Made by a program: the position numbers and the translations under genes. The notes under the pieces are model-generated. The model did not search any database, was not told the origin of the DNA, and saw only the letters and a list, made by a program, of their open reading frames with translations. Shown here one piece after another: positions 3,807 to 44,606 of a stretch of 64,000 nucleotides of DNA (position 1 is its first letter; every line of letters begins with the position of its first letter). Location of the stretch: the NCBI GenBank assembly GCA_018700055.1, contig JABISL010000050.1, forward strand, positions 99,946-163,945, in the 5' to 3' direction. The DNA is from a bacterium (GTDB taxonomy: Bacteria; Margulisbacteria; Marinamargulisbacteria; UBA817; JABISL01).

Positions 3807-5165
3807 ATGGAAGAACGTATACCACCACAGGATATGGAAGCTGAGCAATCTGTGCTTGGCGCCATGATGTTATCTAAGGAAGCAATCGCTGCTGTTCTAG
3901 ATAAAATCAAGCCGGATGATTATTATCGAGATGGTCATAAGTTCATCTTTGAAGCCATGATCGCTCTATATCAGCGAAACGAACCTATCGACCTTGTTAC
4001 TGTCTCTGCCGAGCTAAACAAGCAGGATAAATTGGATGGCGCAGGTGGCAAGACCTATCTAATTGATGTCGTTAACTCGGTTCCTACTGCTGCCAACGTT
4101 GAACATTACGCTGGAATCGTCCGCGAAAAGTCTATTCTTCGTCGATTAATTGATACTGGTACTCATATTGTTAGTGACTCATTTGATGACAACCTTGAAG
4201 TCGACATGATCCTAGGCGATGCGCAACGCGAAATCATGGAAATCTCCAAGGATACTTCGGGCGACGAGTTTGCTCGACTTGGAACTGTTGTGGAGTCTGT
4301 CTGGGATCAAATTAGTGAATCCTACGGGACTGATGACCAGATTTTGGGTGTTCCTACTGGATTCAAAGACCTTGATCAAATGACATCTGGATTCCAACCT
4401 TCTGAATTAATTATCTTGGCCGCTCGTCCCTCCATGGGAAAGACTACTTTGGCAATGAACTTCGCTGTTAATGCGGCATTTAACCACGGTAAAACGGTAG
4501 CTGTATTTAGCTTGGAGATGCCTAAAGAACAGTTGGCGTTGAGAATGTTGTCATCCGAAGCAAAAGTGGATATGGCACGTCTGAAAACAGCTAACATCCA
4601 TGAAAATGAATATAAAGGCATTGCGAAGGCACTCGGCAAATTATCCGAAGCCAATATTTATATAGATGACACTCCGGGAATATCGCCTTTGGCAATGCGT
4701 GCCAAGTTGCGTCGTCTGGAAATGGAAGGGCCGATAGACTTGGTCTTGATTGATTATCTTCAGTTAATGCGCATTGGCAAAAAGAAAATCGAAAGTCGAT
4801 TCCAAGAGGTCTCCGAGATTGTTCGAGAAGTCAAAGGGTTGGCCAAAGAGGTGAATGTTCCGATTATCGCCTTGTCTCAGTTAAGTCGAGATGTAGAGAA
4901 ACGGGGTGGGGATACCATTCCTAAACTGAGTGACTTGAGGGAGTCTGGGGAGCTTGAGCAAACCGCTGATCTCGTTATGTTTATCCATCGTGAAGACTAT
5001 TATGATGGGACAAATTCCAATAAAACCAGTCTTACAAATCTTATTATTTCTAAGCAACGTAACGGTCCCACGGGGAGGGTTGAACTTGTCTTCCGTAAAG
5101 ATGTCTCTCGATTTGAAATGGCTAGCAGTGTTATGCCAGCGAAGTCTCCGCAGTCTACTCCTTAG
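3807..5165 (+). CDS. dnaB: Replicative DNA helicase DnaB
   Basis: N-terminal DnaB domain (QDMEAEQSVLGAMML), Walker A ARPSMGKTT, and RecA-like C-terminal domain. Confidence 0.9.
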   Translation: MEERIPPQDMEAEQSVLGAMMLSKEAIAAVLDKIKPDDYYRDGHKFIFEAMIALYQRNEPIDLVTVSAELNKQDKLDGAGGKTYLIDVVNSVPTAANVEHYAGIVREKSILRRLIDTGTHIVSDSFDDNLEVDMILGDAQREIMEISKDTSGDEFARLGTVVESVWDQISESYGTDDQILGVPTGFKDLDQMTSGFQPSELIILAARPSMGKTTLAMNFAVNAAFNHGKTVAVFSLEMPKEQLALRMLSSEAKVDMARLKTANIHENEYKGIAKALGKLSEANIYIDDTPGISPLAMRAKLRRLEMEGPIDLVLIDYLQLMRIGKKKIESRFQEVSEIVREVKGLAKEVNVPIIALSQLSRDVEKRGGDTIPKLSDLRESGELEQTADLVMFIHREDYYDGTNSNKTSLTNLIISKQRNGPTGRVELVFRKDVSRFEMASSVMPAKSPQSTP

Positions 5166-6669
5166 CAGCCTACTTATAGGGCTTTTTCTATGTAGCTCCC
5201 CTCTTTCCGCCTTTGAAATCGAAGGGCTGCCTTTGGTATTGGAAGCCAATGAAGTGGCGTATGACAATGACACCAAAGATGTGTTTGCTACAGAAAATGT
5301 TCGGATAGACTATGCTCCCTATGTCATCACCTCCGATTATTTCGAGTATGTTGCTCAAGATCGACGTCTACTTTTCAAAGGCAATGTGGTTGTTAAAGAA
5401 AAAGGTAGAACCTTTCAATCTAGGGCCTTTGAATTCGATTTTGATACCCAAAAAGGGATCGCACATGACATCAAATCTACTGTGGACGGCACTATCATTA
5501 AAGGAAAACGTTTATCTGTAACCGCCACTGAAACCACCGTCGATGAAGTAGGGTTTACCACCTGTAGTTTGGATGAACCACACTATGTTTTTCAAGCTAA
5601 TAAGGTCCGTATCTACCCCGAAACCGGTGATTTTGTCGCCAATCATAATACGGTCAATTTATTTGGGGCGCCTATTTTCTATTTCCCTACCTATGTCCAC
5701 AGCTCCAAATCCAGAACGGTGAAGCAAAACTCAACGATTCCAGAGTTTGGCTACAATCGTATAGACGGTACTTTTTTCAAACTTAACTATGCTTATTTTA
5801 TGTCGCCTCGTTCCAATGGCACGATATCTATAGGATCAACTACTTTTCGTGGCAACTTATACGGATTTAATCACCGCTTGGGACTGCACCCCGACCATCG
5901 TTTATTTATCAAAGCCTATGATGTTCAAGACACTGGGTTTGAAGGGGGATTAATCTATGAATGGGATCTTATGCGCCCCAAGGGCGGGACTTATGCTAAC
6001 AGTTTTTTTGATCAACTCTACTCCGTTTTTGCCACCAATGATCAAAGTCGAATGAGCTCTAATTTCACAGCACATTATGTCTATAATGAATCTATTAACT
6101 ATCATTTAGTGGATTACTTACCGATGGTTCAGTGGGACGTAGACCATATTCAACTTCCTTACGATTGGCAGCTCTCAACTGAGGTCTCATCCGGAGAGGT
6201 GCGCGACTCTCAAGCCAGTACCGATAGAAGTGAAGGGATTGGCGTTCTTAGTCATGAGTGGACTCTGACTGAAGACTGGTCCATGGCATCTACGTTTACC
6301 CAGTATCGAAGCTATTATGGGACAGGGGATCGATGGGAGCGTATATTGGGCACTCTAAGTTTTTCATATGAGTCGGCTCTTTTTAAGCCGGAGATCTCTT
6401 ACACCCGCTTATTTTCCGATACTGGAGGAAGCCCTTTTCTCTATGATTCCGAAAATGTCATCGCCTCTGATGAAATTGGCTTGAAACTTACTTCGAATTT
6501 GTGGGGTAAATATTTGGCTCTGGACGTCGATTATGATTTGAATGACCAATCTCTACGGGACGCCACTATAACCACCGGTCTCAAGCAGCATTGTTGGATG
6601 TTAATGGTGAGTTGGAACATGGTTTGGCAAGAATTTCGCTTGGGTGTTTCTGTTATTCCCCACGAATAG
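5101..6669 (+). CDS. LptD/OstA-like outer-membrane protein (OstA N-terminal domain), shorter than canonical LptD
   Basis: Long signal peptide (MSLDLKWLAVLCQRSLRSLLLSSLLIGLFLCSSPLSA) followed by an OstA-N-like region (VAYDNDTKDVFATENVRIDYAPYVITSDYFEY..LLFKGNVVV). The start at 5101 was chosen over 4954 because 4954..5100 lies inside dnaB. Confidence 0.5.
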   Translation: MSLDLKWLAVLCQRSLRSLLLSSLLIGLFLCSSPLSAFEIEGLPLVLEANEVAYDNDTKDVFATENVRIDYAPYVITSDYFEYVAQDRRLLFKGNVVVKEKGRTFQSRAFEFDFDTQKGIAHDIKSTVDGTIIKGKRLSVTATETTVDEVGFTTCSLDEPHYVFQANKVRIYPETGDFVANHNTVNLFGAPIFYFPTYVHSSKSRTVKQNSTIPEFGYNRIDGTFFKLNYAYFMSPRSNGTISIGSTTFRGNLYGFNHRLGLHPDHRLFIKAYDVQDTGFEGGLIYEWDLMRPKGGTYANSFFDQLYSVFATNDQSRMSSNFTAHYVYNESINYHLVDYLPMVQWDVDHIQLPYDWQLSTEVSSGEVRDSQASTDRSEGIGVLSHEWTLTEDWSMASTFTQYRSYYGTGDRWERILGTLSFSYESALFKPEISYTRLFSDTGGSPFLYDSENVIASDEIGLKLTSNLWGKYLALDVDYDLNDQSLRDATITTGLKQHCWMLMVSWNMVWQEFRLGVSVIPHE

Positions 6670-9001: not shown

Positions 9002-10354
9002 ATGAAGGTATTTCCCCCTACTTTTGTATCTTATAAGGTAATAGCAGCTTTTCCCGAAAGTTGTGTTTTCGCACTTAATCTATTAGATACCTGCTTAAAC
9101 CCTCCTCTCAAGGGTATTTTAAAATACCCTCATCGAGACTCTTCAGGGTCTCTCTCAAGCGCCAACACAACTGTCGCCGACAACACTTCTATGTCTTCTC
9201 GGGAGGGATTAGTCCTAGATGATGTATCTGATGTAAGCACTGAAGTTCTTTCTGAGTCGGGCGAATCTTTCAACGTCCCTGCCAAAGAGACTGAATTTTT
9301 ACCGAGTCCTAACGCAAAGGGACATAATGTTTTCTTTGGGGAAGACCTCATTGAGTCCGTTGATAATTATGCCAACCTCTATCCAGAATTATTTCGAAAA
9401 GATCCGACATTGATCTCCCCAACCTATTTTAGGTCGGACTTTTTCTGTGATGAGCTTAACTACGTTGGTGCAGATGTCACAGAATCGAAAGATGTCGTCC
9501 CCCCACAGTTACGCGTCGCTGAGGAACCCCTGCTACGGACTCCCTTTCAAAGGTCACGAAGTCAAAGTCATAACTTAAGTGATTTTATGACTCAATCAAA
9601 TATCGCTATCGCTCCTCCCCCCGCCCCAATACTACCTCAAGCCGAATTAGCACTAGGCAAACTAGTCAGCGCCTATAAGGAGTTTGCTAAGAATCATCCT
9701 GGCACTGACTTATCAAGTCGAGATTTACTCACCAATGTTTCCACAATGGCAAAAACGGCTGATGGATTGACTCAATTAGTTGCTCTTTCAGATCCTACTA
9801 TTGGGGACATATTGCATACCAAAGGACTCTCGCTAACGACTGATGATCAAGACAATGCTAGAAAGTGGTTGGCTGCCGTTGTCAAAATTGGAAAGGGTGG
9901 CGGTTTGGGAGAAACTCAGCTCAATCAATCACGGGCCATTTCATTCGATTCTATGAGAACGGCTATTACGAATATCCTCTTTCACTCGCCCTCTCAAAAA
10001 ACGTTTATATTCGACCTAAACTTGATCGCAAATACTGTAGAGGGATATAAGACTATTCTTATGACCCCCAGCTATTCCGAACTGTTTCATGAGGACTGTG
10101 AGTCCACGTTGTTAGATACTCCCGAAATGAGAGTCCAGTTTTTACACGCTGTCTCACAAATTGTTCGGATGAAAAGTGAGTCCACTACAGCCCTGATCCG
10201 TCAAAAAGGGTTCCAATCAACGCTAGCTACTGTTGTTACCCTCCTTACTAGTCTTGATAGGAAAGCAGACGAAATCGCTCCGATATTAGACACCATCCGA
10301 GCTAAATCCTCTACCTTGAATACAATATTAACTGAAACTTTTGGCTGCTTCTAA
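9002..10354 (+). CDS. Hypothetical protein, 450 aa, Ser/Pro-rich N-terminal half with no signal peptide
   Basis: Long ORF with consistent coding bias. No recognisable catalytic motif. Confidence 0.55.
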   Translation: MKVFPPTFVSYKVIAAFPESCVFALNLLDTCLNPPLKGILKYPHRDSSGSLSSANTTVADNTSMSSREGLVLDDVSDVSTEVLSESGESFNVPAKETEFLPSPNAKGHNVFFGEDLIESVDNYANLYPELFRKDPTLISPTYFRSDFFCDELNYVGADVTESKDVVPPQLRVAEEPLLRTPFQRSRSQSHNLSDFMTQSNIAIAPPPAPILPQAELALGKLVSAYKEFAKNHPGTDLSSRDLLTNVSTMAKTADGLTQLVALSDPTIGDILHTKGLSLTTDDQDNARKWLAAVVKIGKGGGLGETQLNQSRAISFDSMRTAITNILFHSPSQKTFIFDLNLIANTVEGYKTILMTPSYSELFHEDCESTLLDTPEMRVQFLHAVSQIVRMKSESTTALIRQKGFQSTLATVVTLLTSLDRKADEIAPILDTIRAKSSTLNTILTETFGCF

Positions 10355-10366
10355 ACGATATTTACT

Positions 10367-12220
10367 ATGAGTCATTTTTCCAGCTATATATCCCATTCCA
10401 GCAATGGGCGTTCGTTCGTCCCAGGGGGACTTTACGAAAATCAAGCGGAGAATCAGCCTATTGTACTCCCTCTGTCACAGTCTCAAAACAGATCGGCTCA
10501 GGCTGCAGCTCAACAAGCAACGAACGTTCCATCAGGGCAACGCCCTATTGTCCTACCTAGATCCAGGGCCGCTGCTTGGCAACCAGACTACCAACACCAT
10601 TCTCACCCCTTTCCTTTGCCACCTCATTTCCAACCGCCTAAAACGACTCCAGATTCTATTGCGCATCAAACTAAAAATGCCATTATCGACGCGCTGACGC
10701 CCCCTTACGTTCGCGATAAACTAGTGTCTTTACCACATCATTTTTCAACCTTAACACAGCTAGTTCACCACCTCCCTCTAAATGATCGAACTCTATTGTT
10801 ACGCTCAATTGATCAAACACTATCTACAGAGGAAGGGCGAAACTGTCTGACATCCTATCATTTTACTTCGCCTACGATAGCTTCTTTCTTAGCGACTCTG
10901 GGTCGAACCTTAGACCCTGCAGACCATTCTTTATTATCCCCCTCTATTGAGACTCTATCTCTATCCCCCGAAGGTCTAAAACAGCTCATTCATAAACCAT
11001 TTTTTACACCTCTATTCCAAAATAATCCCCAAAATTCTTTTATGTTTAATACCCCTGAAAAACGACAGATTATTCTACAAACACTCGGCGAGGCCTTTCA
11101 AACTGGATCATCTCACAGAGAGCGTTTCTCTCAAGCCCCCTTTAAAGACCTGGTTATTGAGATCGCAAAGTACACTAAAAAGAATACCCCCGAATTATTT
11201 AAGCCTATGAAGATTCATGTTCTACAGTTAGCGAATTCCGTTCCTGAGATTGGAGAAGCATTGCTACGAGCCGGTGTTATTCATCGTCACCAGCCGCCTG
11301 TTCAGGCGCCACCCTCCTCAGTAGCTGCAATTCGAAACAGTTTAATCCGTACCATTGAGAATAATCCCTCTCAGTCTATTTCTGATCAACCTCAGGAAAC
11401 TGCAGCACCTCCACTAACTCTTTCTGCTGCAATGCAGGCCTTGTTGGGGCCCCCAACTATTCGACCTTTAACTAGTTCTGCGCGCTCATCATCTAACACA
11501 CAGCCCTCTCATGCACTAAGAGCATCTCCTATTACTACGTCATCATCACATGAAGTTGTCCCACCGACACTCTCTCAAACAGAAATAGAAGCCCAACGAA
11601 ACAACTCTATTGATAGTGCTATTGAGAAGAGTGCTCGACACTTTAAAAACATAAAGAACTGTTGTCAGCATATCGTTAATTTTATTGTCTTATCGACTTT
11701 GGGGTTAGAAGAGCATGCCAATCGAATTCCTAAGAAACCATGTAACAATACCTATGATATTAAACATTATCCCACCCCCGTTAAAAGAGAAGGGGGGCTA
11801 CCTCAATACCTTGCGAATACTACTGAAGTCGTTAGTAATATTTCCTTAACACGTTATTCCCCATACGGAACGACGTGGACCATTGATTTGACAGGTGATG
11901 TCCCCGAAGAATCCTACCACCATCATACTCAGTCTATTGCAAAAGCATGGCCCTATTATTCTGTTGATAATGCTGACGACGTTTTGACAGAAATGTTACA
12001 AAAATATAATCATTGCTCATTCGTTATTGTTGAAATTGGGGCGTCTGGATCCCTAGGAGGTCATTCACTCTTGTGTGTTAAAAATGGATCATCTCTCTAT
12101 CTAATAAATAATGGGGCTAAAGTCCTTCAAAAATCCCCCTCTCACCTTGAACTATCCGTTTTCCTCAAAAAGGAAGATTTTAATGTTATGGGGTTAAGGG
12201 TGCTCCACAGCGAAACCTAA
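10367..12220 (+). CDS. Hypothetical protein, 617 aa, Pro/Gln/Ser-rich N-terminal region with a repeated PIVLP motif and a globular C-terminal ~200 aa
   Basis: Long ORF. Low-complexity effector-like N-terminus. The C-terminal region has a Cys..His..Asn spacing loosely reminiscent of papain-fold enzymes (weak). Confidence 0.55.
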   Translation: MSHFSSYISHSSNGRSFVPGGLYENQAENQPIVLPLSQSQNRSAQAAAQQATNVPSGQRPIVLPRSRAAAWQPDYQHHSHPFPLPPHFQPPKTTPDSIAHQTKNAIIDALTPPYVRDKLVSLPHHFSTLTQLVHHLPLNDRTLLLRSIDQTLSTEEGRNCLTSYHFTSPTIASFLATLGRTLDPADHSLLSPSIETLSLSPEGLKQLIHKPFFTPLFQNNPQNSFMFNTPEKRQIILQTLGEAFQTGSSHRERFSQAPFKDLVIEIAKYTKKNTPELFKPMKIHVLQLANSVPEIGEALLRAGVIHRHQPPVQAPPSSVAAIRNSLIRTIENNPSQSISDQPQETAAPPLTLSAAMQALLGPPTIRPLTSSARSSSNTQPSHALRASPITTSSSHEVVPPTLSQTEIEAQRNNSIDSAIEKSARHFKNIKNCCQHIVNFIVLSTLGLEEHANRIPKKPCNNTYDIKHYPTPVKREGGLPQYLANTTEVVSNISLTRYSPYGTTWTIDLTGDVPEESYHHHTQSIAKAWPYYSVDNADDVLTEMLQKYNHCSFVIVEIGASGSLGGHSLLCVKNGSSLYLINNGAKVLQKSPSHLELSVFLKKEDFNVMGLRVLHSET

Positions 12221-17672: not shown

Positions 17673-18254
17673 ATGTGGAAAATGATTAAATCTCGTTATG
17701 CGAAATGGGTCGACTATAAGGCCAAAATCAAAGCTGAAAGTGCGATAAAATACTTCATCTTAGACGGTGTCGAAAGTATTATTGTGGCTTTGGGAATGGC
17801 GTTAGTCATCAAAACCTATATTCTCCAAACATCATTAGTCTATTCCGGGTCTATGATCCCTACTCTTGGGATCAATGATCGATTGATCGTTAACAAGGTC
17901 ATCTATCATACTCGTGCCCCAATACGCGGTGAAATTGTCTTGTTTGAATCACCTTATAAAGATAAAAAGGAATTCGTAAAACGACTTATTGCTTACCCAG
18001 GTGAATTGGTTGAAGTTAAGCGAGGCATCATCTATATCAATGGAACGCAGCTAGTTTTAGCCGGTGTAAATGTTCAGCGTGATTACAGTTATTACGGTCC
18101 CGAAACGGTTCCCGAAAACTCATACTTTGTTATGGGTGATAATCGTGGAAATTCAGCCGATTCTCGTGTTTGGGGGTTTGTTCCAAGAAATGAGCTCATT
18201 GGCAAAGCGATTTTTACCTTTTGGCCTCCCAGCCGTGTTCAAGTTCTACACTAG
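17673..18254 (+). CDS. lepB: Signal peptidase I
   Basis: Catalytic Ser box SGSMIPTL and the C-terminal GDNRGNSADSRVWGFV box. Confidence 0.8.
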   Translation: MWKMIKSRYAKWVDYKAKIKAESAIKYFILDGVESIIVALGMALVIKTYILQTSLVYSGSMIPTLGINDRLIVNKVIYHTRAPIRGEIVLFESPYKDKKEFVKRLIAYPGELVEVKRGIIYINGTQLVLAGVNVQRDYSYYGPETVPENSYFVMGDNRGNSADSRVWGFVPRNELIGKAIFTFWPPSRVQVLH

Positions 18255-18260
18255 CCAGTC

Positions 18261-19094
18261 ATGAACCTAACCGTTAACGGCGACCCAATGGATGTGGCGG
18301 CTTCTAACCCCACGGTCGCAGATGTTGTGTCTCAACTTAAGTTAAACCCGGCTCATATTGTCGCGGAACATAATGGTGAGGTGCTTAGCTCGGAGCGCTT
18401 TGGTACACCCGTCTATGATGGTGATAAGCTCGAACTCGTTCGGTTTATGGGTGGTGGTGCTATCACAGCACCAGATCACTTTGAGACTCAGTGGGATAAC
18501 ATTGCCAAGTCTTCCCCAAAAGAAAATATGGCCTATGACGCCCAGTTACTGGAAACTCTCTCCGACTCTACTCGAGTGTTTCGTCTCTACCAATGGCCCA
18601 GCCCAGGAATAACTTATAGCTACAAACAAACATTACCTGAAACGTTACAATCCCAAGCCAATAGCTCCCGAATCACTGGTGGCGGGGTTGTGTTTCATGA
18701 GACTGGCGACGGGCTATTCACCGCAATCGGTTGGTTAACAGACCCGATGTTTCCCAAACGTCTCAAAGATAAAATGGCCTTTTTTAGCGACCAGTTACAT
18801 GACGCCTTTTTAAAAATAGAAATCCCTCTCGACGCCAATGAATCAGAGGGGCCAATCGACAGAGACTACTGTAAGCAATACCCCAACCCTTTTGAGCTAT
18901 CCTTGAATGGCGAAAAAATTGTGGCGTTAACACTTAGACGGTTTAAGGATCGGTTTATTATGCAAGGCATATTGCATTTACATTCCATTGACTCAAATGT
19001 ATCTTGGCAAGCCTTAAGTGAGGCAATTCAGTCCAGCTTTACTGGACTGAAGACAACGATCGAAGAAGAGACGGAAGCTCCGTCAAATCTTTGA
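18261..19094 (+). CDS. Fusion protein: N-terminal ThiS/MoaD-like beta-grasp domain (~65 aa, internal GGG) plus lipoate/octanoate-protein ligase (LplA/LipB/LipM) catalytic domain
   Basis: N-terminus (MNLTVNGDPMDV..VVSQL..GDKLELVRFMGGG) matches ThiS-like proteins. The C-terminal domain carries the BPL/LPL signature (RITGGGVVFHETGDG, equivalent to RRSSGGGAVFHD) and the conserved Lys region (GEKIVALTLRRFKDRFIMQG). Confidence 0.55.
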   Translation: MNLTVNGDPMDVAASNPTVADVVSQLKLNPAHIVAEHNGEVLSSERFGTPVYDGDKLELVRFMGGGAITAPDHFETQWDNIAKSSPKENMAYDAQLLETLSDSTRVFRLYQWPSPGITYSYKQTLPETLQSQANSSRITGGGVVFHETGDGLFTAIGWLTDPMFPKRLKDKMAFFSDQLHDAFLKIEIPLDANESEGPIDRDYCKQYPNPFELSLNGEKIVALTLRRFKDRFIMQGILHLHSIDSNVSWQALSEAIQSSFTGLKTTIEEETEAPSNL

Positions 19095-21372
19095 TAATAA
19101 GAACATTAAGCTGGGAAGGAATGGAAATTTCTTCTTCCTCAAAATTCCAAGCGCTAGCTACTACTGTAGTAATTCCCAACTGAGACGCAGCCAATAGCTT
19201 TTGTTCCAATGCTTCTGTGGGAAGCACCTTTCCTAATAGTGATATTTGACCTGCAAACGCGACAGTGGCCTGCAAAGGCAAATCAAGAATAGCCGATAAA
19301 ATAGCCGTAAATACAGCTAACCCCCACCCCTCACCTTTCTTTTCTAACTGCTGCTTGTGAAAATGAACATGCACATCCTGAGACGTTAGTATTTCGGCAG
19401 ATAACCCAAATTCTTTATGGTGGGTCTTAATATAGGAAATCGTCGTTTTGATTGTTTCTTGAAGAAGTGGATCTATATTCCCCGTTGCCAAAATTTGTCC
19501 CGTTCCTGAATAAACTGCCGCTTCAATAGGCAAACAGTTACCAATCATACCCACCGTATAGAGCGCAACCGATCTACCTGAACGCGGTTCGGTTGAGAAA
19601 TTGGGCTTGGAAATCCCTGGCCCCAAGAACTCCTGAATAGTCGTTTCACTTAACTCCGCAGGCAATGGTTCTCCGGACACCTTTTTGAGGGCCAGTTTTC
19701 TTAATAATCGCTGAAAACACCGGTCCAATTCACGCAACCCAACATCTGCTGTGTAGTGTGCGATTAAATGCTCAAGAAATGCACGATTCATCTTAATTTT
19801 AAGTTTGCTAAGCCCATGAGCCTTAATCTGTTTGGGCAAAAGATAATGCTGCGCCAATTCAATTTTTTCGGACAGTGTATACCCAGAGATCTGAATAATT
19901 TCTAATCGATTCAGAAGTGGAGCGGGGATATCACTCATGTTATTGGCCGTACAAATAAATAAGGTTTGGGAAAGGTTAAATGGCACTTGGATATAATGAT
20001 CCATAAATGTGTCATTCTGCTCCGGATCAAGGATTTCCAATAGGACGGAAGAAGGGTCTCCTTTAAATCCAGACGCCATTTTGTCTATCTCATCCAAGAG
20101 TATTACCGGATTGATAGACTGTGCCTTATAGATAGCCGAAATAATTTTGCCTGGTAAGGCGCCAACATACGTCCGTCGATGTCCACGCAAGTCCGCTTCA
20201 TCACGAATCCCACCTAAGGCAATCCGATAGTACTTGCGGTCCAAAGCCTTAGCGACACTTTTTACCACAGATGTTTTACCCACACCTGGAGGGCCAACCA
20301 AACACAAAATATTAGAGGTCGGATTCTTGGATAATTTCTTAACCGCTAGGTATTCAAGGATACGTTCTTTGACATCATCCAATCCAAAATGACGCTTACT
20401 AAGCGTTTCTCTTACCTTATTAATATTCAATCGATTGCGCGTTTGCTTACGCCAAGGAAGGTCCAATACAAAATCTAAATGGGCACGAATTACGCCGGCT
20501 TCAGTGGATTCATCCGGGGACCGTTCCAGTTTATTGATTTCTTTTTCGATCTCTAAATGGGCATCGCTCGTTAGCGCCAGTTCACGAAGTCGCTCTCTAT
20601 ACCGATTAATTTCTTCTTCTTGTGAACTCTGCCCCAACTCCATCTGAATCGCACGGAGCTTGGCCTTTAGCAACATTTCCTTCCGCTCAGTTTCTACATT
20701 ACTCTGTACTATCCCATCAATGCTCTGTTCCAAGTTGGCATCAATAATCAATTGGTTAAGATGGCTCAAAACCTTTTCTAATCGACTACTGACAAGTGTT
20801 TCTTCTAGAATTTCTTGCTTTTCACTAAGATTCAAGTCCAAGTAAGATCCTATAAGATCTGTCAGCTCTGCAGGTTTATCAACGTCCAGAATGGCTAGAA
20901 TCGTATCATCTAAAACCTCTCCTGCCGCATTTAAATGTTCTTTAAATCGTTGGTATACCGTATTGGTTTGAGCGCTTAGGTCTTCAGGTTCTACTTGATC
21001 AAAAACAGGCTCAATATCTGCCAAAAGAATCCCATCGTCAGATAGGTGAATGTTCTTTACCCAGACCTTTTCTTGGCCCTCAACTAAAAGTCGTGCTGGG
21101 CCATCTACTTGATCCTGAAATTGAACGACCTCACAACGGACGCCAATATCATGAAGTTCCTCTTCTGAGATTTGGTCCAAAGTTGTATTGCTACCAATGG
21201 GTCTTTTGGGCAAAACGATAACGCACTCTTTGGGTCCGCCTTCAGGGTCTTCTAGGCTATCATTTGGACAAAATTGAGTTTGGATCTGCTGAACAGTGTT
21301 TGGAAAAACAAACCCTTGTTCGATAGGTACTACAAATCTGGTTGTTGTTGGGGTTTTGGCCACTGGGCTCAC
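19039..21372 (-). CDS. lon: Lon-family AAA+ protein (LonA architecture) with a substituted protease catalytic dyad
   Basis: LAN domain, Walker A GPPGVGKTS, Walker B ILLDEIDK. The protease domain aligns to E. coli Lon, but Ser679 (DGPSAG) reads GEGWGL and Lys722 (GGLKEK) reads EALEQK. Confidence 0.8.
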   Translation of the reverse strand: MSPVAKTPTTTRFVVPIEQGFVFPNTVQQIQTQFCPNDSLEDPEGGPKECVIVLPKRPIGSNTTLDQISEEELHDIGVRCEVVQFQDQVDGPARLLVEGQEKVWVKNIHLSDDGILLADIEPVFDQVEPEDLSAQTNTVYQRFKEHLNAAGEVLDDTILAILDVDKPAELTDLIGSYLDLNLSEKQEILEETLVSSRLEKVLSHLNQLIIDANLEQSIDGIVQSNVETERKEMLLKAKLRAIQMELGQSSQEEEINRYRERLRELALTSDAHLEIEKEINKLERSPDESTEAGVIRAHLDFVLDLPWRKQTRNRLNINKVRETLSKRHFGLDDVKERILEYLAVKKLSKNPTSNILCLVGPPGVGKTSVVKSVAKALDRKYYRIALGGIRDEADLRGHRRTYVGALPGKIISAIYKAQSINPVILLDEIDKMASGFKGDPSSVLLEILDPEQNDTFMDHYIQVPFNLSQTLFICTANNMSDIPAPLLNRLEIIQISGYTLSEKIELAQHYLLPKQIKAHGLSKLKIKMNRAFLEHLIAHYTADVGLRELDRCFQRLLRKLALKKVSGEPLPAELSETTIQEFLGPGISKPNFSTEPRSGRSVALYTVGMIGNCLPIEAAVYSGTGQILATGNIDPLLQETIKTTISYIKTHHKEFGLSAEILTSQDVHVHFHKQQLEKKGEGWGLAVFTAILSAILDLPLQATVAFAGQISLLGKVLPTEALEQKLLAASQLGITTVVASAWNFEEEEISIPSQLNVLIIKDLTELPSLLRSLSSVQ

Positions 21373-26081: not shown

Positions 26082-27191
26082 TTACCTCAAAAAGACAGTC
26101 GCAGCCTGGTCATAGAGATCAGGATTGGCAGGTAATGTATCCGATAGTGTCTTAAGTTGAGATTGCGCCGCTTTGTAGTCGTCTTCAGAAGAGATTATCG
26201 ATAAAATTTTGTTGGCTATTTTTTTGGGGCAAATATCATTCTGGCGATACTCAGGAACGACTTCGCTTCCCATAATAATGTTAGGTAACCCTATAAAAGG
26301 AAACTTGAATCTTAATAGGTACGTGACAATCAAATAGGAAATCGGCGAAAGGGCACCCATGATCACTTGAGGAATACCTAAAAGTGCCGTTCTGAGGGTC
26401 GCCGTTCCCGCAAAATTAACCACAAAATGGGCACGTGACTCCCAAGGTGTTTCAGAGTCCCACACTGCGATAATATCATCGTGGTTTTTCATAAGGTCCT
26501 CAACTATAGGACGCAGTCTGGTATTGGGACAAACTACCCAACATTTAATAGATTGGTCCGTACTTAATCGTTTGGCAATCTTGCACATCTGAGGGAACAA
26601 GCGTTTAATTTCGGTTTCTCTTGTTCCGGGATTAAAAATAATTACTTTTTGCTCATGTTTAGAGGGAAGTTTGGGATATTTTGGGGTTAGATCCAATGTC
26701 AGTGGGTGACCAAAATAATGACAGTTTGTGGCGCCTAACCCTTCATAAAATTTCCTCTCAGACTCAAATATTGTCACTATTTCGTTGCTGTAGCTAGCTA
26801 GCTTCCGACCCCCACGCTTGTCATTCCAAATCCAAAAATTGGGAGTAATGAGTGTGGATATTGAAATATTGAGCGCTTGCAATGTCTCAGCAATTGCCAA
26901 GTTCATATGCGGATAATCAATAATGATAGCCTTTCTAACGAAGCGTCCTTTTCCAAATTTATGTATCGTATCGAGAAGCTGCTTTTTTTTGTCCTTCTTA
27001 CCCCAGTTTTCGGTAATTCCCACAGCATGACTGTAAGCTGTTTCCATTAAAAAATCATCGGCAACGCCCTGCAGTTTGGCACCGCCAATCGCCGCTATTC
27101 GAGTGTTGGGAGACTTCTTTTTGATTGCCTTTACTAGCTCAGCTCCATAATGGTCTGATGACATTTCACCGGCAATAACCAGGATACTCAT
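26082..27191 (-). CDS. lpxB: Lipid-A-disaccharide synthase
   Basis: N-terminal ILVIAGEMSSDHYGAEL plus GT19-family layout. Confidence 0.85.
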   Translation of the reverse strand: MSILVIAGEMSSDHYGAELVKAIKKKSPNTRIAAIGGAKLQGVADDFLMETAYSHAVGITENWGKKDKKKQLLDTIHKFGKGRFVRKAIIIDYPHMNLAIAETLQALNISISTLITPNFWIWNDKRGGRKLASYSNEIVTIFESERKFYEGLGATNCHYFGHPLTLDLTPKYPKLPSKHEQKVIIFNPGTRETEIKRLFPQMCKIAKRLSTDQSIKCWVVCPNTRLRPIVEDLMKNHDDIIAVWDSETPWESRAHFVVNFAGTATLRTALLGIPQVIMGALSPISYLIVTYLLRFKFPFIGLPNIIMGSEVVPEYRQNDICPKKIANKILSIISSEDDYKAAQSQLKTLSDTLPANPDLYDQAATVFLR

Positions 27192-27193
27192 AT

Positions 27194-28453
27194 CTAGTCT
27201 GTTTCAGATTCTTCGATAGAGGTTTTTTTGGATATGCCTCGAGAAGATCCTTCCTTAAGGAACTCTATTAGCAATTTGATTTGATCGGTTTCACAAGCGC
27301 CTGTTTCGATTTCTTCCAATGCTTGTTTGATATTCATACTGGATCGATAGAGTAGTTTGTAGGCGTTTTTGAGTTCTTTTAACTCTGTCGCTGAGAGTCC
27401 TGCACGACGCAAGCCAACCACATTAAGATTGCGAACATACGCAGGGTTTCCATCACACAACATAAAGGGAGGGACATCTTGAATTAGTCGGGAATACCCG
27501 CCAGACATTGACCCGCGACCTACTCGAACGAATTGATGAACCCCGGTTAAACCACCAATTATCGCCTTATCATCAATCACCACATGGCCGCCAACATGCA
27601 CCATATTAGCTAACGTAGTACTGTTACCCACCACGCAATTGTGTCCAATATGAACATTGGTAAGGAACATATTGTCACTTCCGATTTGAGTGACTTCATT
27701 CTTGCCTGTAGCTCTATTAATCGTTACGTATTCACGAATTTGATTACGATCACCAATTACCACCCAAGATTTTTCGCCCTGATACTTCATGTCTTGTGGA
27801 CCAGATCCAATGACTGAGCCGAAATGAATATGGTTTTCTTCGCCAATCTTGGTCCATTTTTCAATATACACATGAGCTTCTATTCTGGTCTTGTCGCCAA
27901 TCTGAACGTTCTCACCAATGATACTATAAGGGCCAACTATGACGTCCTTTCCTAATATCGCGGTGGGATGAACCGATGCAGTTGGGTGAATCTGAGCCTT
28001 AGTAGGTTGCTGAGTAAGTGTAAAAAGAAGTCCGCCTTCACAAACAATCGCGTCGTTGCATAAGACTTTGCCTTCAAATGTGATGGTTTCTTCTTTGCGT
28101 TTGGTTACTTCTACTTCTATACGAAGTTGATCGCCAGGATTTACATCGCGATGAAACTCTATCTTCTGCGCTTGGGAAAATGTTGGGCGTTGGCCAGACA
28201 AGTCCTTGTTACTCAATAGTATTGTAGTAGCCGCCTGCGTCATGGTTTCTAAGATCAATGCACCGGACATTACGGGACTAGACATTCCATCATCCTGGAA
28301 AAAAGGATCGTTACTACTTACAGATTTGATTGCAATAATACGTTCATTGGGAACCAATTCTAAAATACGATCTAGTAAAAGATGAGGGGTGCGTTGCGAT
28401 AAAACATCTTGCACGTCTGTTGCTGTCATGGGCTTATTATAGTTGATTGCCAC
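27194..28453 (-). CDS. lpxA: Fusion protein: FabZ-like hotdog domain (catalytic His replaced) plus UDP-GlcNAc acyltransferase LpxA
   Basis: N-terminal ~150 aa aligns to FabZ (TPHLLLDRILEL..NDPFFQDDGMSSPVMSGALILETMTQAA), but GHFPG reads DDGMS. The C-terminal left-handed beta-helix has hexapeptide repeats and the LpxA catalytic His context (VHIGHNCVVGN). Confidence 0.8.
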   Translation of the reverse strand: MAINYNKPMTATDVQDVLSQRTPHLLLDRILELVPNERIIAIKSVSSNDPFFQDDGMSSPVMSGALILETMTQAATTILLSNKDLSGQRPTFSQAQKIEFHRDVNPGDQLRIEVEVTKRKEETITFEGKVLCNDAIVCEGGLLFTLTQQPTKAQIHPTASVHPTAILGKDVIVGPYSIIGENVQIGDKTRIEAHVYIEKWTKIGEENHIHFGSVIGSGPQDMKYQGEKSWVVIGDRNQIREYVTINRATGKNEVTQIGSDNMFLTNVHIGHNCVVGNSTTLANMVHVGGHVVIDDKAIIGGLTGVHQFVRVGRGSMSGGYSRLIQDVPPFMLCDGNPAYVRNLNVVGLRRAGLSATELKELKNAYKLLYRSSMNIKQALEEIETGACETDQIKLLIEFLKEGSSRGISKKTSIEESETD

Positions 28454-39273: not shown

Positions 39274-39350
<77 letters not shown>

Positions 39351-39441
39351 ATAGTTAGGGTCGAAATTGATTGGGGGACTGATGCGGGGAGTTTTTCTTC
39401 TACCCTTTTTCTACCCGGATGCATTTAACTAGGAGGCTGTT

Positions 39442-39777
39442 TTGTTAACAAAACAAGGAACCCAAAGACTTCATGACAAGCTAAATAAGAAGGGTCTAGA
39501 TGAAGTTGAAATCGAATTGGAAAGTGGTGCTTATCGTGGACCAAAGAAAATCATCGTTTGTTCTTGGATAAAAAAAGAAAAAGAAAAGAAAGCGGGGGAA
39601 ATTCGCCTAGATAAACAAGATGCTAGGGAAGAAGAAAACCTAGCAATTAATAAACAGCAATTAGTCATTAACAAGATCGCAATTTCGAAATCAAACACTA
39701 AAGCAAATTTGGCAATCGGTATCTCCATTGGACTTCCCATAATTCTTAAAATTATTGATTACTGTTTTTTTAAATAG
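39442..39777 (+). CDS. Small Lys/Glu-rich protein with a C-terminal TM helix (element cargo, uncertain)
   Basis: ORF only. Confidence 0.3.
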   Translation: MLTKQGTQRLHDKLNKKGLDEVEIELESGAYRGPKKIIVCSWIKKEKEKKAGEIRLDKQDAREEENLAINKQQLVINKIAISKSNTKANLAIGISIGLPIILKIIDYCFFK

Positions 39778-39786
39778 CGTTTGATT

Positions 39787-40242
39787 CTATTCAACGATTT
39801 TACATGTCCCATTATATTGTGACGTCATTGGATCAATTAATGTTAGATGTCGTGAATAGACCATTGGGTATTGTTGGGTATTTGTTAAAGGCTTTGAAAA
39901 TACAGTAAGTATATTAATCCCACCCCCAGTATATTCAGCAAAAGTAATGCCCTTGCTAATTTTGATTGCCTGAACATCTGTTGATCCACTTCCGATCAAC
40001 CGAGCCGTGCCATTTTTAAGGTCGATAGAATCAAATATTAACGTGGAATCCTCCTTAGACTTAGACCATGTGCTGGCTTTCATACTGGGCCCGTTCTTAT
40101 CCCAAACAGTGAACATTCCCTTGCCTATCTGGCATTTTATTGTTGTCGCTGTTATTAATTCATTGCCTTTAATATTCCCTAAACAGACATTTGAAAAGAC
40201 TATTAATAGAACCAAAACGAGTTTCGTTTTCCATATATCCAT
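39787..40242 (-). CDS. Secreted hypothetical protein (signal peptide), element cargo
   Basis: The internal Met gives a typical signal peptide (MDIWKTKLVLVLLIVFSNVCLG). No homology recognised. Confidence 0.4.
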   Translation of the reverse strand: MDIWKTKLVLVLLIVFSNVCLGNIKGNELITATTIKCQIGKGMFTVWDKNGPSMKASTWSKSKEDSTLIFDSIDLKNGTARLIGSGSTDVQAIKISKGITFAEYTGGGINILTVFSKPLTNTQQYPMVYSRHLTLIDPMTSQYNGTCKIVE

Positions 40243-40298
40243 ACCCCTGCGCCTCATCAAGAGCGGCGCATCAGTGGGTGTGGGGATGTGTGTAAACA

Positions 40299-40502
40299 CT
40301 AACAGTGCATATCCTTCTCAATAGTGATCTTGTAGCCAATCACCTTAAGGATTTCTTTTAGCTCGGCATATTTAATGGAGCCGCGAGCGATTTTTTGGTT
40401 GAGGTTTTGGGTGCTGGTGCCAAGTAATTCGGCAACCTTCGCGACAGTAAATCCTGCCCCGTAAATAATCCCTTTAATCTCGTTTTTGATTTCGTCTGTC
40501 AT
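40299..40502 (-). CDS. XRE/Cro-like helix-turn-helix DNA-binding protein, 67 aa
   Basis: HTH region VAKVAELLGTSTQNLNQKIARGS. Confidence 0.6.
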   Translation of the reverse strand: MTDEIKNEIKGIIYGAGFTVAKVAELLGTSTQNLNQKIARGSIKYAELKEILKVIGYKITIEKDMHC

Positions 40503-40749
40503 AGGCGCTCACTTTATCATAGTTCACTTCAATAAACTAAACTGTTTATAGAAGATGCTTGACTGTTTATTCATAAGTATTTATACTATAAATGTATTCG
40601 TTTATTAGATAAATCTTTTAGTGGAGCGGGGTGATAAAACAAATAACAAATCAGGATGGGTGAAAAGAACGGACTCTCGCTTAAAAGGCCAATCCTTTTG
40701 CACCCGTCCTAAGCATATCAAAAACAAACAATTCTGCTTAGGAGCATCT

Positions 40750-40947
40750 ATGGAACTATTAACCAAACAAGAACTAGCCAACTATCTAAAGGTACGGGTC
40801 AAAACAGTCTGTTACCTTCTCTATTCCAAACAACTACCCAAAATCAAAGTGGGCAGAGAATACCGATTCATCAAAACAGACATCGATAAATGGATCGCAT
40901 CGCAACGACAAGAAGTACGAACCTACTCCTTCAAAGGCATCCATTAA
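40750..40947 (+). CDS. xis: Excisionase / AlpA-like HTH (Xis)
   Basis: MELLTKQELANYLKVRVKTVCYLLYSKQLPKIKVGREYRF matches the excisionase HTH_17 pattern. TAATG overlap with the int start. Confidence 0.6.
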   Translation: MELLTKQELANYLKVRVKTVCYLLYSKQLPKIKVGREYRFIKTDIDKWIASQRQEVRTYSFKGIH

Positions 40948-42065
40948 TGGCCTTCCTTAAAGAAGTCCCAGGAAAAAACAAACCCACCTTTTACATCATC
41001 TACAAACAACCGGTACGCCAACCGAACGGTACCGTTATTAATAAAAAGAAATGGCTCAACGTAGGGCACGTTAAATCAAACGCCCACCAAGCACTACGAG
41101 CCTTTAAGAAAGAGTACGACGCCAACCGAAGTAAGTTCACACTCACGCAAACAGTCCTCTTCTCTACCTTCGTAAACGAGTCATTCCTCCCCTGGTGCAA
41201 ATCCAGAAAAAACGAAAAAGAATATGCCAGGACCTGTCATTCGATATGTTTGATGGTGGGGTTCTTTGGGCCCATTCGACTCAATGACCTTACGACAAAA
41301 ATGATTGAAGACTATGTCACATGGCGAAAAGAACGAAAGACACGTGACAAGAGTATTTCCAATCGAACAGTCAATATTGACCTCATTTACCTATCCCAAT
41401 GCTACAACAAAGCTATCGAATGGGAAGTTGTAGAGAATAATCCCTGCAAAAAAGTATCGAGATTAAAGGAGCCCAAAAGTCGTGTGCGTTTCTTTAGTGT
41501 TGAAGAAATAGGCCATCTCATCTTTGCGGCGAACCCGTATATCAAACGGTTCTTGATCGTCGGTCTCTCTACGGGCATGCGACATAGTGAGTTGTTGAAT
41601 CTAAAGCTCTCTCAGATCGATATGGTTAACCAAACCATCCACATCACTAACGATGAGACGTTTCAGACGAAGAGTGGGAAGAATCGGGATATTCCCATCT
41701 CGTTCTTTCTCATGGATCACCTCGTCCAAATGATGAAAACATGGGCCCACCCTATCACCTGTGAAGTGCGACCTCGCACGTCAGCGCAATCGACTTATTT
41801 GTTCTGCAACGAGAAGGGAGAACCTCTCAAGAGCTTTAAGCGATCGTTCTATTCATTGCTTGCCCATGCCAATGTCTCAAACGCCACCGTCCACACCATG
41901 CGCCATACATTCGCCTCTCATCTCGTGATGAAAGGCGTGAGTATCCGAACGGTTCAAGAGCTGCTTGGACACTCTTCAATCAGTGTTACGGAGATGTATG
42001 CCCATTTGAGCAGTGGGTTTAAGAAGAAGGAGATTGATTTGCTGGATTACGGGGGCTTGGGCTAA
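40947..42065 (+). CDS. int: Tyrosine-type site-specific integrase
   Basis: C-terminal catalytic region (HTMRHTFASHLVMKGVSIRTVQELLGHSSISVTEMYAHL) with R..H..R..Y signature residues. Confidence 0.85.
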   Translation: MAFLKEVPGKNKPTFYIIYKQPVRQPNGTVINKKKWLNVGHVKSNAHQALRAFKKEYDANRSKFTLTQTVLFSTFVNESFLPWCKSRKNEKEYARTCHSICLMVGFFGPIRLNDLTTKMIEDYVTWRKERKTRDKSISNRTVNIDLIYLSQCYNKAIEWEVVENNPCKKVSRLKEPKSRVRFFSVEEIGHLIFAANPYIKRFLIVGLSTGMRHSELLNLKLSQIDMVNQTIHITNDETFQTKSGKNRDIPISFFLMDHLVQMMKTWAHPITCEVRPRTSAQSTYLFCNEKGEPLKSFKRSFYSLLAHANVSNATVHTMRHTFASHLVMKGVSIRTVQELLGHSSISVTEMYAHLSSGFKKKEIDLLDYGGLG

Positions 42066-42108
42066 TTGTGCAATTTATTGCGAGTGAAAGTTGCACAATT
42101 ATGCACAA
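42066..42108. promoter_or_regulatory. Operator-like repeats TTGTGCAA-N17-TTGCACAA plus a third half-site, upstream of the RhuM::Doc gene
   Basis: 8-bp inverted repeat seen in sequence, followed by an additional tgcacaa half-site at 42102. Confidence 0.3.
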
Positions 42109-42202
42109 TTAGGAAAACCACCTCTCACATGGACAATGATGTGAGTGTAACGTAAGATAATTACTATTTTATTTATTTATTGACGTAACTAGGAGAAACA
42201 CC

Positions 42203-43237
42203 ATGAAAACTACAAAAGAAAACCAAATACTGATTTTTAAATCCGACACCGGACCGGAAGTCGATGTGACACTTATTGATGAAAACATATGGCTCACACA
42301 AGCGCAAATGGCGGAGTTGTTTGAGAGAACAAGAGAAAATATAACCTTGCACATTAAAAATATTTTTAATGAGGAAGAATTGGATGAAAAAGTGGTATGT
42401 AAGGAATCCTTACATACCACTCAACATGGTGCTTTAAAGAAAAAAACACAAACTAGCACCGTCAAACTCTACAATCTTGATGTCATCATTTCAGTGGGTT
42501 ACCGCGTTAAATCCAAACGTGGGACGCAGTTCAGGATATGGGCCAATCGGGTTCTCAAGGACTATTTGATTCAAGGGTATGCCGTCAATGAGAATAAGCT
42601 CAAAGGCCAGACCCAAAAGATTAAACAGCTTGAAGCGACGATACAATCAATCGTGTCAGCGTCAGACCAAAAAGAGTTAACGAATACTGAGGCCAAGGGT
42701 GTATTGAGGGTAATTCAGGACTATACCCTGGCATTGGACCTATTGGACCAATACGACCATCAAAAACTTCAAATAGAGAATACAAATAAACAGACCGGAA
42801 CTGTGATTAGCTATGAAGAGGCGATGAATGCCATCGCGACATTAGAGCAGAAGTTCCGAACCGATGGGGAATCTGTAGGGTTCTTTGGAAAGGAAAAAGA
42901 CGATTCATTCCGCAGTTCCATTGCTACGATATACCAGACCTTTGATCAGAAAGAGCTATACCCAAGCATCGAAGAGAAGGCAGCGCATCTCTTGTATTTC
43001 GTTATCAAGAACCACTCGTTTGTTGATGGGAATAAGCGAATCGCAGCGTTTGTGTTTGTTTGGTTCTTAGAACGAAATGATTACCTATATGCCCCTGATG
43101 GTAGACGCAGGATCGAAGATAACGGTCTTGTTGCACTCTGCTTATTGGTAGCTCATAGCAAACCGGATGAAAAAGACGTCTTCGTTAAGTTGATCGTGAA
43201 CTTGATTAATAAGCGGAATGGAGGGAACAACGGATAG
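42203..43237 (+). CDS. RhuM-family N-terminal domain fused to Doc/Fic-family domain (HxFx(D/E)GNKR motif)
   Basis: RhuM-like N-terminus (ITLHIKNIFNEEELDE..YNLDVIISVGYRVKSKRGTQFRIWANRVLKDYLIQG). Doc-type motif HSFVDGNKRIAAFVF near the C-terminus. Confidence 0.75.
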   Translation: MKTTKENQILIFKSDTGPEVDVTLIDENIWLTQAQMAELFERTRENITLHIKNIFNEEELDEKVVCKESLHTTQHGALKKKTQTSTVKLYNLDVIISVGYRVKSKRGTQFRIWANRVLKDYLIQGYAVNENKLKGQTQKIKQLEATIQSIVSASDQKELTNTEAKGVLRVIQDYTLALDLLDQYDHQKLQIENTNKQTGTVISYEEAMNAIATLEQKFRTDGESVGFFGKEKDDSFRSSIATIYQTFDQKELYPSIEEKAAHLLYFVIKNHSFVDGNKRIAAFVFVWFLERNDYLYAPDGRRRIEDNGLVALCLLVAHSKPDEKDVFVKLIVNLINKRNGGNNG

Positions 43238-43901: not shown

Positions 43902-44606
43902 TTAAGCCGAAGGGGTTCTTTTTTCGTTTGAAAGAGCTAATGTTTGCAGAACTCTTAAGTACTCATCGGGCATATAAGATGACCCGTCACCGGCAGAACA
44001 CGCCTCATTGTCATATAGAAATGGTACATCAAAGTGTTTTGACCAATCCAATACCATTTTCGACGCCCGGTGTCTCTCTTTTCCATTACCAACAATCAAT
44101 GTCTGGCCGTCCTTCTGATGGTCATAGTCCTTCAATGGCATTAGTCGATCTGTAGTAAAAATAAGCATGTTTTCTTGGTCTTGATCTTTAACAATATCAG
44201 CTGGATTCAGCAGAATGCCATTATAGTCTTGCTCTACAGGAACCTCCCTTTGTACCCGATGCCCGATAAGTTTGTCGTTAGAATCAAAAACAGGTGTGCC
44301 AAATCCCCCTAAGTTGGCATGTGCGGGGACAAACATTGATACCATCTGTACGTCTCCCTGAGAAGGAATCCCTTCTAAAAGGTCTAAGACCTTCTCTTCA
44401 TTGAAAAGGTCCCAATTAGATTGATTTCCTGTAAGCAGTTGATGCGTTGTAAAATTCCCTCGTTCACTACTGAGGAAGGCATTCAAATCGGCCAATTCTT
44501 GAATTTTTTGGTGTGATGTATAGTCAAAGTCCATGATAACTCTACGGTCATCTAGGCTTACGATAAGGTAATCGTGAAAGGCCTCACCTTTTTCATTTAA
44601 GGACAT
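43902..44606 (-). CDS. C-terminal fragment carrying the His/Asp part of a transglutaminase-like cysteine-protease core; probably the downstream half of the preceding gene, split by a frameshift
   Basis: AFHDYLIVSLDDRRVIMDFDYT resembles the TGase-like H..(G)W..FDPT segment. 10-nt out-of-frame overlap with the upstream ORF at an A6 run. Confidence 0.5.
   Translation of the reverse strand: MSLNEKGEAFHDYLIVSLDDRRVIMDFDYTSHQKIQELADLNAFLSSERGNFTTHQLLTGNQSNWDLFNEEKVLDLLEGIPSQGDVQMVSMFVPAHANLGGFGTPVFDSNDKLIGHRVQREVPVEQDYNGILLNPADIVKDQDQENMLIFTTDRLMPLKDYDHQKDGQTLIVGNGKERHRASKMVLDWSKHFDVPFLYDNEACSAGDGSSYMPDEYLRVLQTLALSNEKRTPSA

Follow-up and report, generated by a model that had tools for sequence, protein, structure and literature searches.

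Carrier-enzyme fusions, in which a β-grasp sulfur carrier forms the N-terminal part of a larger protein and an enzyme begins directly past its Gly-Gly, are known from MoaX of Mycobacterium tuberculosis, DR2607 of Deinococcus radiodurans and ThiS-ThiG. MoaX is cut between Gly82 and Ser83 and its activity requires that cleavage (PMC4326299), while in the Deinococcus MoaD-MoaE fusion cleavage by a JAMM protease exposes the C-terminal Gly (PMC8832034). The β-grasp survey of Iyer et al. 2006 catalogued ThiS-ThiG, ThiS-ThiF and MoaD-MoaE fusions, with no lipoate or LplA partner among them (PMC1779556), and our literature search for a fusion of ThiS with a lipoate ligase found nothing relevant. Here we describe such a fusion, encoded by a single open reading frame (ORF) within a 64,000-nt stretch of bacterial DNA (the window), whose product joins a ThiS domain through a short linker to a minimal catalytic domain of the lipoate-protein ligase superfamily (the Lpl-like domain). 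The protein shares with MoaX, DR2607 and ThiS-ThiG the N-terminal carrier and the enzyme placed directly past the Gly-Gly but, unlike those proteins, which fuse the carrier with its own partner, it combines ThiS with an LplA-like domain without known relation to ThiS. The known theme is the carrier-enzyme fusion with an internal Gly-Gly, and what is new here is an uncharacterised branch of the lipoate-ligase superfamily as the partner. The architecture appears to be undescribed and rare, with three clusters among ~15 billion proteins, to none of which its source gives a name. The explanation we favour, and to which we give an even chance of being right, is an ancient and since retained merger of two operon neighbours, in which ThiS would be cleaved between its GGG and the following Ala and the Lpl-like half would be an independent acyl transferase.

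Since the source is a metagenome, and since the two genes are separate in a relative (locus L007) in which they overlap by 4 bp, so that a one-base error could fuse them, we considered whether the fusion might be an artefact: an assembly chimera, a stop-removing frameshift or a mis-called start. The identical 277-residue product was recovered from four contigs belonging to three independent samples, however, one of them a 228.7-kb contig from the Joint Genome Institute (JGI) with the gene order of the window; two orthologues at ~45% identity (P0002 and P0004) are fused likewise; and the GC content is flat around the locus, at 0.42-0.44. The stop-to-stop frame of the fusion ORF opens at 18255, an in-frame stop being present 6 nt ahead of the ATG, and similarity to ThiS sets in as early as residue 3 of the protein, which shows that the N-terminal domain is not a 5′ extension created by a mis-called start. 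Nor can the start lie further upstream, given that lepB ends at 18254. An artefact is essentially excluded and, in our assessment, effectively refuted. An internal start or promoter from which the Lpl part could be made on its own was ruled out as well, because the inter-domain linker contains no ATG, GTG or TTG and no promoter-like site was found between the ThiS and Lpl-like domains; M90 is part of an invariant N-M-x-x-D motif within the Lpl-like domain.

Residues 1-66 (MNLTVNGDPMDV...KLELVRFMGGG) form a full-length ThiS. They score 56.5 bits against the NCBIfam equivalog model TIGR01683 (thiS; cut-off 37.45, E 2.6e-15, model positions 1-64 of 64) and 39.5 bits against the Pfam model PF02597 (ThiS; cut-off 22.5, E 8e-10). 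The AlphaFold2 model of these residues has a predicted local distance difference test (pLDDT) score of 88.9, and its Foldseek matches, at a template modelling (TM) score of ~0.8, are headed by Geobacter ThiS (3cwi, TM 0.83, 48% identity), B. subtilis ThiS (1tyg, 0.81) and Escherichia coli ThiS from its complex with ThiF (1zud, 0.79), with TtuB, SAMPs, MoaD and ubiquitin below them. Five loci, including the window, carry a thiS linked to an Lpl-like gene or domain (hereafter the clade), and a profile built from the ThiS domains of this clade retrieves Bacillus subtilis ThiS from the ThiS-ThiG complex (1tyg_B, E 2.5e-17), whose chain terminus aligns with the GGG. N6, G7, D55, E58 and the GGG are invariant in all five, and the ThiS part has the look of a functional carrier. 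The sequence-only reading of this DNA had taken the first ~65 residues for a ThiS-like domain and had named, as findings that would speak against it, a lack of β-grasp similarity or a mis-called start; the strength of the ThiS matches and the stop just ahead of the ATG dispose of both doubts, and the assignment holds.

The domain thus has in common with ThiS proteins of known structure (1tyg, 1zud, 3cwi) its fold, its length and its signature, including the C-terminal F/V-GGG. All five clade members exceed the TIGR01683 cut-off, at 40-56 bits (40.3-49.8 for the domains orthologous to that of the window), while the ThiS proteins of canonical operons score higher, at 58-66 bits. The nearest stand-alone representatives, P0138 (42% identity) and P0148 (49%), both end exactly at the GGG and are encoded in the contexts tenA-thiG-thiH-thiE-thiS-thiF-thiD-thiE and thiF-thiS. 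That these nearest relatives lie in classical thi operons indicates that the domain derives from a thiamin carrier, and we infer that the N-terminal module is nothing other than a ThiS sulfur carrier of the thiamin type, which would serve thiamin synthesis in this organism. Two features set it apart from such carriers: its Gly-Gly is internal, and no thiF, thiG or thiH is found nearby, whereas its nearest stand-alone relatives lie in thi operons.

As encoded, the Gly-Gly end of ThiS is not free, because the GGG (residues 64-66 of 277) is followed by 211 further residues. The internal position of the Gly-Gly had been pointed out by the sequence-only reading, correctly, together with the need for proteolytic release before any thiocarboxylate chemistry; this release is plausible and has its precedent in MoaD-MoaE (PMC4326299, PMC8832034), but here we infer it, whereas cleavage of MoaX and DR2607 has been shown experimentally. 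With the Gly-Gly internal, adenylation and thiocarboxylation of the Gly66 carboxylate would need a cut after Gly66. All five clade ThiS are encoded with residues past the GGG, comprising a single A in L007, SSPRV in L089 and the whole second domain in the three fusions, and the residue directly after the GGG is A, S or T in every case. In P0002 and P0004 the ThiS domain ends ...HFVGGG and is followed by a Ser/Thr/Ala linker of 5-6 residues (STLTAS and TSTSA, respectively), equivalent to that of the window protein, so that the linkers are short across the fusions (5-8 residues) and start with a small residue, as does the sequence past the cleaved Gly82 of MoaX. Extra residues past the GGG, the first of them always small, fit a clade-wide processing step, and by analogy with MoaX and DR2607 ThiS is probably freed by cleavage after the GGG.

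Outside the fusions, some stand-alone ThiS proteins also extend past the Gly-Gly. An unrelated one from an Omnitrophota metagenome-assembled genome (L001:10001-10207) ends GGGCG before its stop, compared with GGGA at L007:5807-6004 and GGGSSPRV at L089:296-511. Judging from these termini, ThiS proteins may be processed at the C-terminus more widely than has been assumed.

The C-terminal domain is a highly divergent member of the lipoate-ligase fold. Residues 86-242 match PF21948 (LplA-B_cat) at 42-43 bits (cut-off 27, E 1e-10), although only model positions 2-148 of 200 are covered, the last quarter being unmatched. The LplA/LipB-type assignment of the sequence-only reading is confirmed by this match, and the RITGGGVVFHE and Lys-containing boxes on which that assignment drew are both present. 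In the AlphaFold2 model pLDDT exceeds 90 across the domain, while the C-terminal tail (residues ~259-277) is poorly conserved and modelled with low confidence. Similarity to characterised enzymes is remote: the best profile E-value in the PDB is 9e-9, and no NCBIfam lipoate model came near its cut-off, TIGR00545 reaching 12.6 bits against 280 and the LipL/LipM-type models remaining unmatched.

An alignment of 37 family sequences defines a set of invariant residues comprised of M90, D93, Y110, W112, R137, G140-G142, H146, D150, C204, E212, K219 and Q235. The R-x-TGGG-x-x-F-H loop aligns to the ARRYTGGGAVYHD / RRYTGGGAVYHD loop of Thermoplasma acidophilum LplA, and the box around K219, which reads G217-EKIVALTLRRFKDR, places this residue on the Lys of PfLipL1 '...NDQKCSGSA'. 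The domain therefore resembles LplA, LipB, LipM and LipL (PF21948/PF03099; 2ars, 2qht, 2p5i) in its catalytic-domain match, its catalytic Lys and its RxxGGG..H loop, and differs from them in being very divergent and shorter (~190-215 residues in its stand-alone form), with neighbours that are never lipA, gcvH or E2 genes. C204 provides a candidate for a second catalytic residue, and the C-x14-K spacing recurs in more distant short LplA-like metagenome proteins. In LipL, Cys150 forms the acyl-enzyme (10.1101/419234); LipB employs a Cys/Lys dyad (Cys169/Lys135), and LplA relies on Lys alone and forms lipoyl-AMP (PMC9307952). Cys204 may, by analogy to Cys150 of LipL, act as an acyl-thioester nucleophile, although PDB sequence searches with the Lpl-like domain reached neither LipM (2p5i) nor the Cys204 region. 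In LipM the spacing of the pair is that of C150/K165.

The fusion protein ends ~58 residues past the catalytic Lys, without an accessory domain. T. acidophilum LplA requires LplB for lipoyl-AMP synthesis. The lack of an LplB-type domain, together with the missing last quarter of the catalytic model, makes a thioester acyl transferase likelier than an ATP-dependent ligase. By analogy with the Cys/Lys enzymes of this superfamily, the Lpl-like domain is probably an octanoyl or lipoyl transferase that acts independently of ThiS.

To place the fusion among its relatives, we searched 1.84 billion cluster representatives (~15 billion proteins) with HMMER, and three of the matches bear a ThiS domain: P0001, which is a fragment of the window protein, P0002 (254 residues, TARA Oceans) and P0004 (294 residues). 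Among the fusion proteins, the ThiS domains share 39-45% identity and the Lpl domains 43-53%, so that the two halves have diverged to a similar extent, and the check on orthologues that the sequence-only reading proposed thus finds the fusion kept in both P0002 and P0004. The P0004 locus (L004), ordered dapF, lepB, a 223-residue ORF, fusion, lon, clpX, clpP, tig, is syntenic with the window, in which the order is pgi, a wecG-like gene, a csaB-like gene, dapL, dapF, lepB, fusion, lon, clpX, clpP, tig. Housekeeping proteins of the two loci are 63.5% (ClpX), 70.7% (ClpP), 49% (Lon), 44% (Tig) and 55% (LepB) identical. This deep organismal divergence, with every ThiS still above the cut-off, indicates that the fusion is old and that constraint acts on both halves. 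Each of the five ThiS-linked loci has lepB ahead of thiS, directly in four and with one intervening ORF in L004, which makes it a likely operon partner.

Beyond these five loci the Lpl-like domain belongs to a family that does without ThiS. The HMMER search gave 879 matches at E ≤1e-3, 117 of them below 1e-10 (clusters at 50% identity), and nearly all are stand-alone proteins of 190-240 residues that match only residues ~80-250 of the fusion protein. A custom hidden Markov model separates the members of the family (187-258 bits) from other short LplA-like proteins (at most 123). Among 26 distinct family loci, 21 have neither ThiS nor lepB nearby, though in two of them the contig breaks off at the 5′ end of the gene and leaves no upstream region to judge. 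P0017 and P0003, placed with the fused P0004 by a tree of poor resolution, are themselves unfused and have no ThiS upstream, where in-frame stops and unrelated ORFs are found instead. When the five ThiS-linked Lpl domains were compared with 26 others, a single, weak group-specific position emerged, residue 99. In the absence of a residue signature linked to ThiS, the Lpl-like domain of the fusion appears to do what the stand-alone family does.

Across the family the Lpl-like gene almost always stands tail-to-tail with lon or with clpX-clpP-tig; in L011 (336-2905) it follows clpP-clpX codirectionally, whereas most other loci are convergent with lon or clpX. Recurrent upstream neighbours among 45 scanned ORFs are of the cyclopropane fatty acid (CFA)-synthase type (five) and Band_7 (four), with DUF1295 and DUF1365 also present, and in L020, L021, L022 and L024 the Lpl-like gene lies codirectionally downstream of CFA-synthase-type genes (CMAS, DUF1365, DUF1295). 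These neighbours may hint at a link to fatty-acyl metabolism. The sole family member with an organism-bearing NCBI name is P0037, a 'hypothetical protein [Candidatus Margulisiibacteriota bacterium]', whose locus is not syntenic with the window; a literature search on Margulisbacteria and thiamine yielded nothing informative. The P0037 contig also encodes, at L096:1-1800, a protein of at least 708 residues that contains a ubiquitin C-terminal hydrolase domain of eukaryotic type (PF00443 UCH).

Under the explanation that we favour, the ancestral arrangement in this lineage would have been lepB-thiS-lplX facing lon-clpX-clpP-tig, and loss of the thiS stop codon in some descendants would have turned thiS and lplX into one reading frame; from an overlap of the L007 type, a 1-nt frame change alone would produce the fusion. 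The protein would be made as a precursor and cut after the GGG by a protease encoded elsewhere, and the Lpl-like half would continue as the Cys/Lys acyl transferase of its family, working through a thioester intermediate as LipM, LipL and LipB do. The fusion would have been tolerated and retained because the ThiS of this lineage already has a blocked C-terminus that is processed after the Gly-Gly. Several observations weigh against this account. No JAMM or other protease candidate and no thiF, thiG, thiH, thiC, thiD or thiE was found in the window or in the DNA flanking L004, L007 and L089, the window having been scanned with Pfam and NCBIfam over all ORFs of at least 150 residues plus selected small ORFs. 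An Rfam scan of the window returned two tRNAs and no thiamin pyrophosphate (TPP) riboswitch, and lipA, gcvH and E2 genes are absent near every family member, which has no lipoate or thiamin genes for neighbours. Cys204 is a putative equivalent of the acyl-enzyme Cys of LipM and LipL. A bootstrapped neighbour-joining tree of the Lpl domains is star-like, with 0% support, and the three fused proteins form no supported clade, so that fusion or fission may have taken place more than once. Finally, known ThiS and MoaD fusions join functional partners (ThiG, MoaE), and Rosetta-stone logic accordingly argues that ThiS and the Lpl-like domain are functionally linked; retention over a deep divergence, too, goes beyond the needs of a neutral accident.

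An internal Gly-Gly with a linker of just 5-8 residues, and the failure to find protease and E1 genes nearby, would also suit a β-grasp domain that is never cleaved and carries no sulfur, acting instead as a permanent docking, solubility or regulatory module, for instance by recruiting a partner able to recognise ThiS-like folds, with the GGG only as a flexible hinge. The lower TIGR01683 scores of the clade relative to canonical-operon ThiS point in the same direction, and uncleaved β-grasp domains on enzymes are common (PMC1779556). We nonetheless think this unlikely, as the ThiS signature, with its [FY]-x-GGG, does not vary among the five members, stand-alone ones included, and would not be needed by a hinge; as all five pass the curated equivalog cut-off; and as stand-alone Lpl-like relatives at ~45% identity work without the module and show no compensating differences. 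A targeting module, which the sequence-only reading gave as its alternative, may still apply. That reading had suggested a coupling of sulfur-carrier chemistry with lipoyl or octanoyl transfer. Under a true coupling, the Cys/Lys domain would act on the ThiS C-terminus, or a ThiS thiocarboxylate (ThiS-COSH) would supply sulfur for lipoyl assembly on the substrate of the Lpl domain. Fusion, a gene pair overlapping by 4 bp and long retention classically indicate that two proteins are functionally linked, ThiS and MoaD are joined to functional partners in the known fusions, every clade ThiS needs C-terminal processing although no JAMM gene is seen nearby, and the invariant Cys/Lys pair suits both thioester and amide chemistry. 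In one version, the Gly66-Ala67 bond would be cut in cis or in trans via a Cys204 thioester, in an amide-to-thioester chemistry like that of LipL on octanoyl-lysine, with ThiS leaving as acid, thiocarboxylate or lysine conjugate and a ThiF-type E1 bypassed or replaced. Against any such coupling, the Cys/Lys pair and the other invariants are equally kept in ~100 stand-alone clusters without nearby ThiS, specificity positions linked to ThiS were not found, thiS and lplX of L089 are parted by two opposite-strand genes, and the Lpl-like domain lacks the accessory domain and the part of the catalytic model that LplA uses for adenylation. No lipoyl synthase is known to use a thiocarboxylate. With three fused representatives in 1.84 billion, 21 of 26 loci without ThiS, the unfused relatives P0017 and P0003 beside the fused P0004, no residue signature in the Lpl domain, and no LipA, GcvH, E2, ThiF/MoeB or JAMM gene in the window, the proposed coupling finds no support, and we consider it improbable. 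Its specific form, in which Cys204/Lys219 attacks the Gly66-X bond of the fusion or the short extensions of the split versions to form a ThiS thioester, later released as acid, thiocarboxylate or lysine conjugate, strikes us as very improbable. The account of a maintained fusion of operon neighbours, with a cleaved ThiS and an independent transferase, is thus the one we retain.

Table 1. Features of the fusion gene and its neighbours (window coordinates), and arrangement of thiS and the Lpl-like gene (lplX) in the five ThiS-linked loci.
Feature or locus	Position	Strand	Description
Fusion ORF	18261..19094	+	ATG start, 277 residues plus stop; ThiS-linker-Lpl-like; both domains above curated cut-offs
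ThiS β-grasp sulfur-carrier domain	18261..18458	+	residues 1-66, ends RFMGGG; GGG at 18450-18458
Linker AITAPDHF	18459..18482	+	residues 67-74; pLDDT <50 at residues 65-69; predicted cleavage region Gly66/Ala67
Minimal LplA/LipB-fold catalytic domain	18483..19034	+	residues ~75-258; no LplB-type accessory domain
R137-ITGGGVVF-H146 loop	18669..18698	+	counterpart of the LplA RRxxGGGxVxH lipoate-binding loop
Cys204 (TGT)	18870..18872	+	invariant in 37 sequences; 15 residues before Lys219; candidate acyl-thioester nucleophile
Lys219 (AAA) in GEKIVAL	18915..18917	+	invariant; equals the conserved catalytic Lys of LplA/LipB
lepB (signal peptidase I)	17673..18254	+	TIGR02227, 146.8 bits; 6 nt upstream of the fusion
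lon	19039..21372	-	convergent; 3′ end overlaps the fusion ORF by 56 nt (19039-19094); followed by clpX, clpP, tig
Window			fused ThiS-Lpl
L004 (P0004)			fused ThiS-Lpl
L005 (P0002)			fused ThiS-Lpl
L007			separate 65-residue thiS; its stop shares 4 bp with the lplX start (GGGGCATGAGG); ends GGGA before the stop; lepB upstream
L089			lepB-thiS (ends GGGSSPRV before the stop), two opposite-strand genes, lplX, lon; thiS 1.4 kb upstream of lplX

The overlap between the fusion gene and lon (Table 1) recurs at other loci, where the fusion gene or lplX overlaps lon by ~70 nt in L089 and by 4 nt in L004. Further along the window, beside lpxB (26082-27191), the minus-strand ORF 27194-28453 encodes a 419-residue protein that combines a FabA/FabZ-type dehydratase with LpxA (Hexapep, Acetyltransf_11), an apparent FabZ-LpxA fusion; its counterpart in L004 has 410 residues and LpxA-type domains only. 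Past a tRNA-Arg(tct) (39274-39350) come genes for an integrase of phage type (40890-42065) and for a RhuM/Fic protein (42203-43237), at a slightly lower GC content of 0.39-0.43, and this segment (39274-43237) is probably a mobile element integrated at the tRNA. The window also encodes a 1132-residue protein with DUF4116 as its only Pfam match (44597-47995, minus strand), a 1039-residue thermolysin-like M4 protease with FTP propeptide, fn3 and FlgD_ig-like domains (49124-52243, plus strand), and a giant ORF of 3587 residues (53165-63928, minus strand) without a Pfam match at E ≤1e-4, whose strongly negative AT skew suggests a biased amino-acid composition or repeats. Many further ORFs of the window have no Pfam match, for example 9002-10354, 10367-12220 and 4954-6669.

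For annotation, the consequence is that the fusion gene should not be called simply 'ThiS' or 'lipoate-protein ligase A'. If our preferred explanation is true, ThiS would join the few bacterial β-grasp carriers that are made as precursors and cut after the Gly-Gly, for which experimental proof has so far come only from MoaD-MoaE, and the fusion would point to a protease for this processing in an uncultured lineage about which little is known and whose lplX-linked ThiS proteins are all C-terminally blocked. Should the two halves cooperate instead, they would represent a new, E1-independent activation or conjugation of a bacterial ubiquitin-like protein by a lipoate-ligase fold. The minimal LplA-like family itself, with ~117 clusters and an invariant Cys/Lys pair, may provide these organisms with their missing octanoyl or lipoyl transferase.

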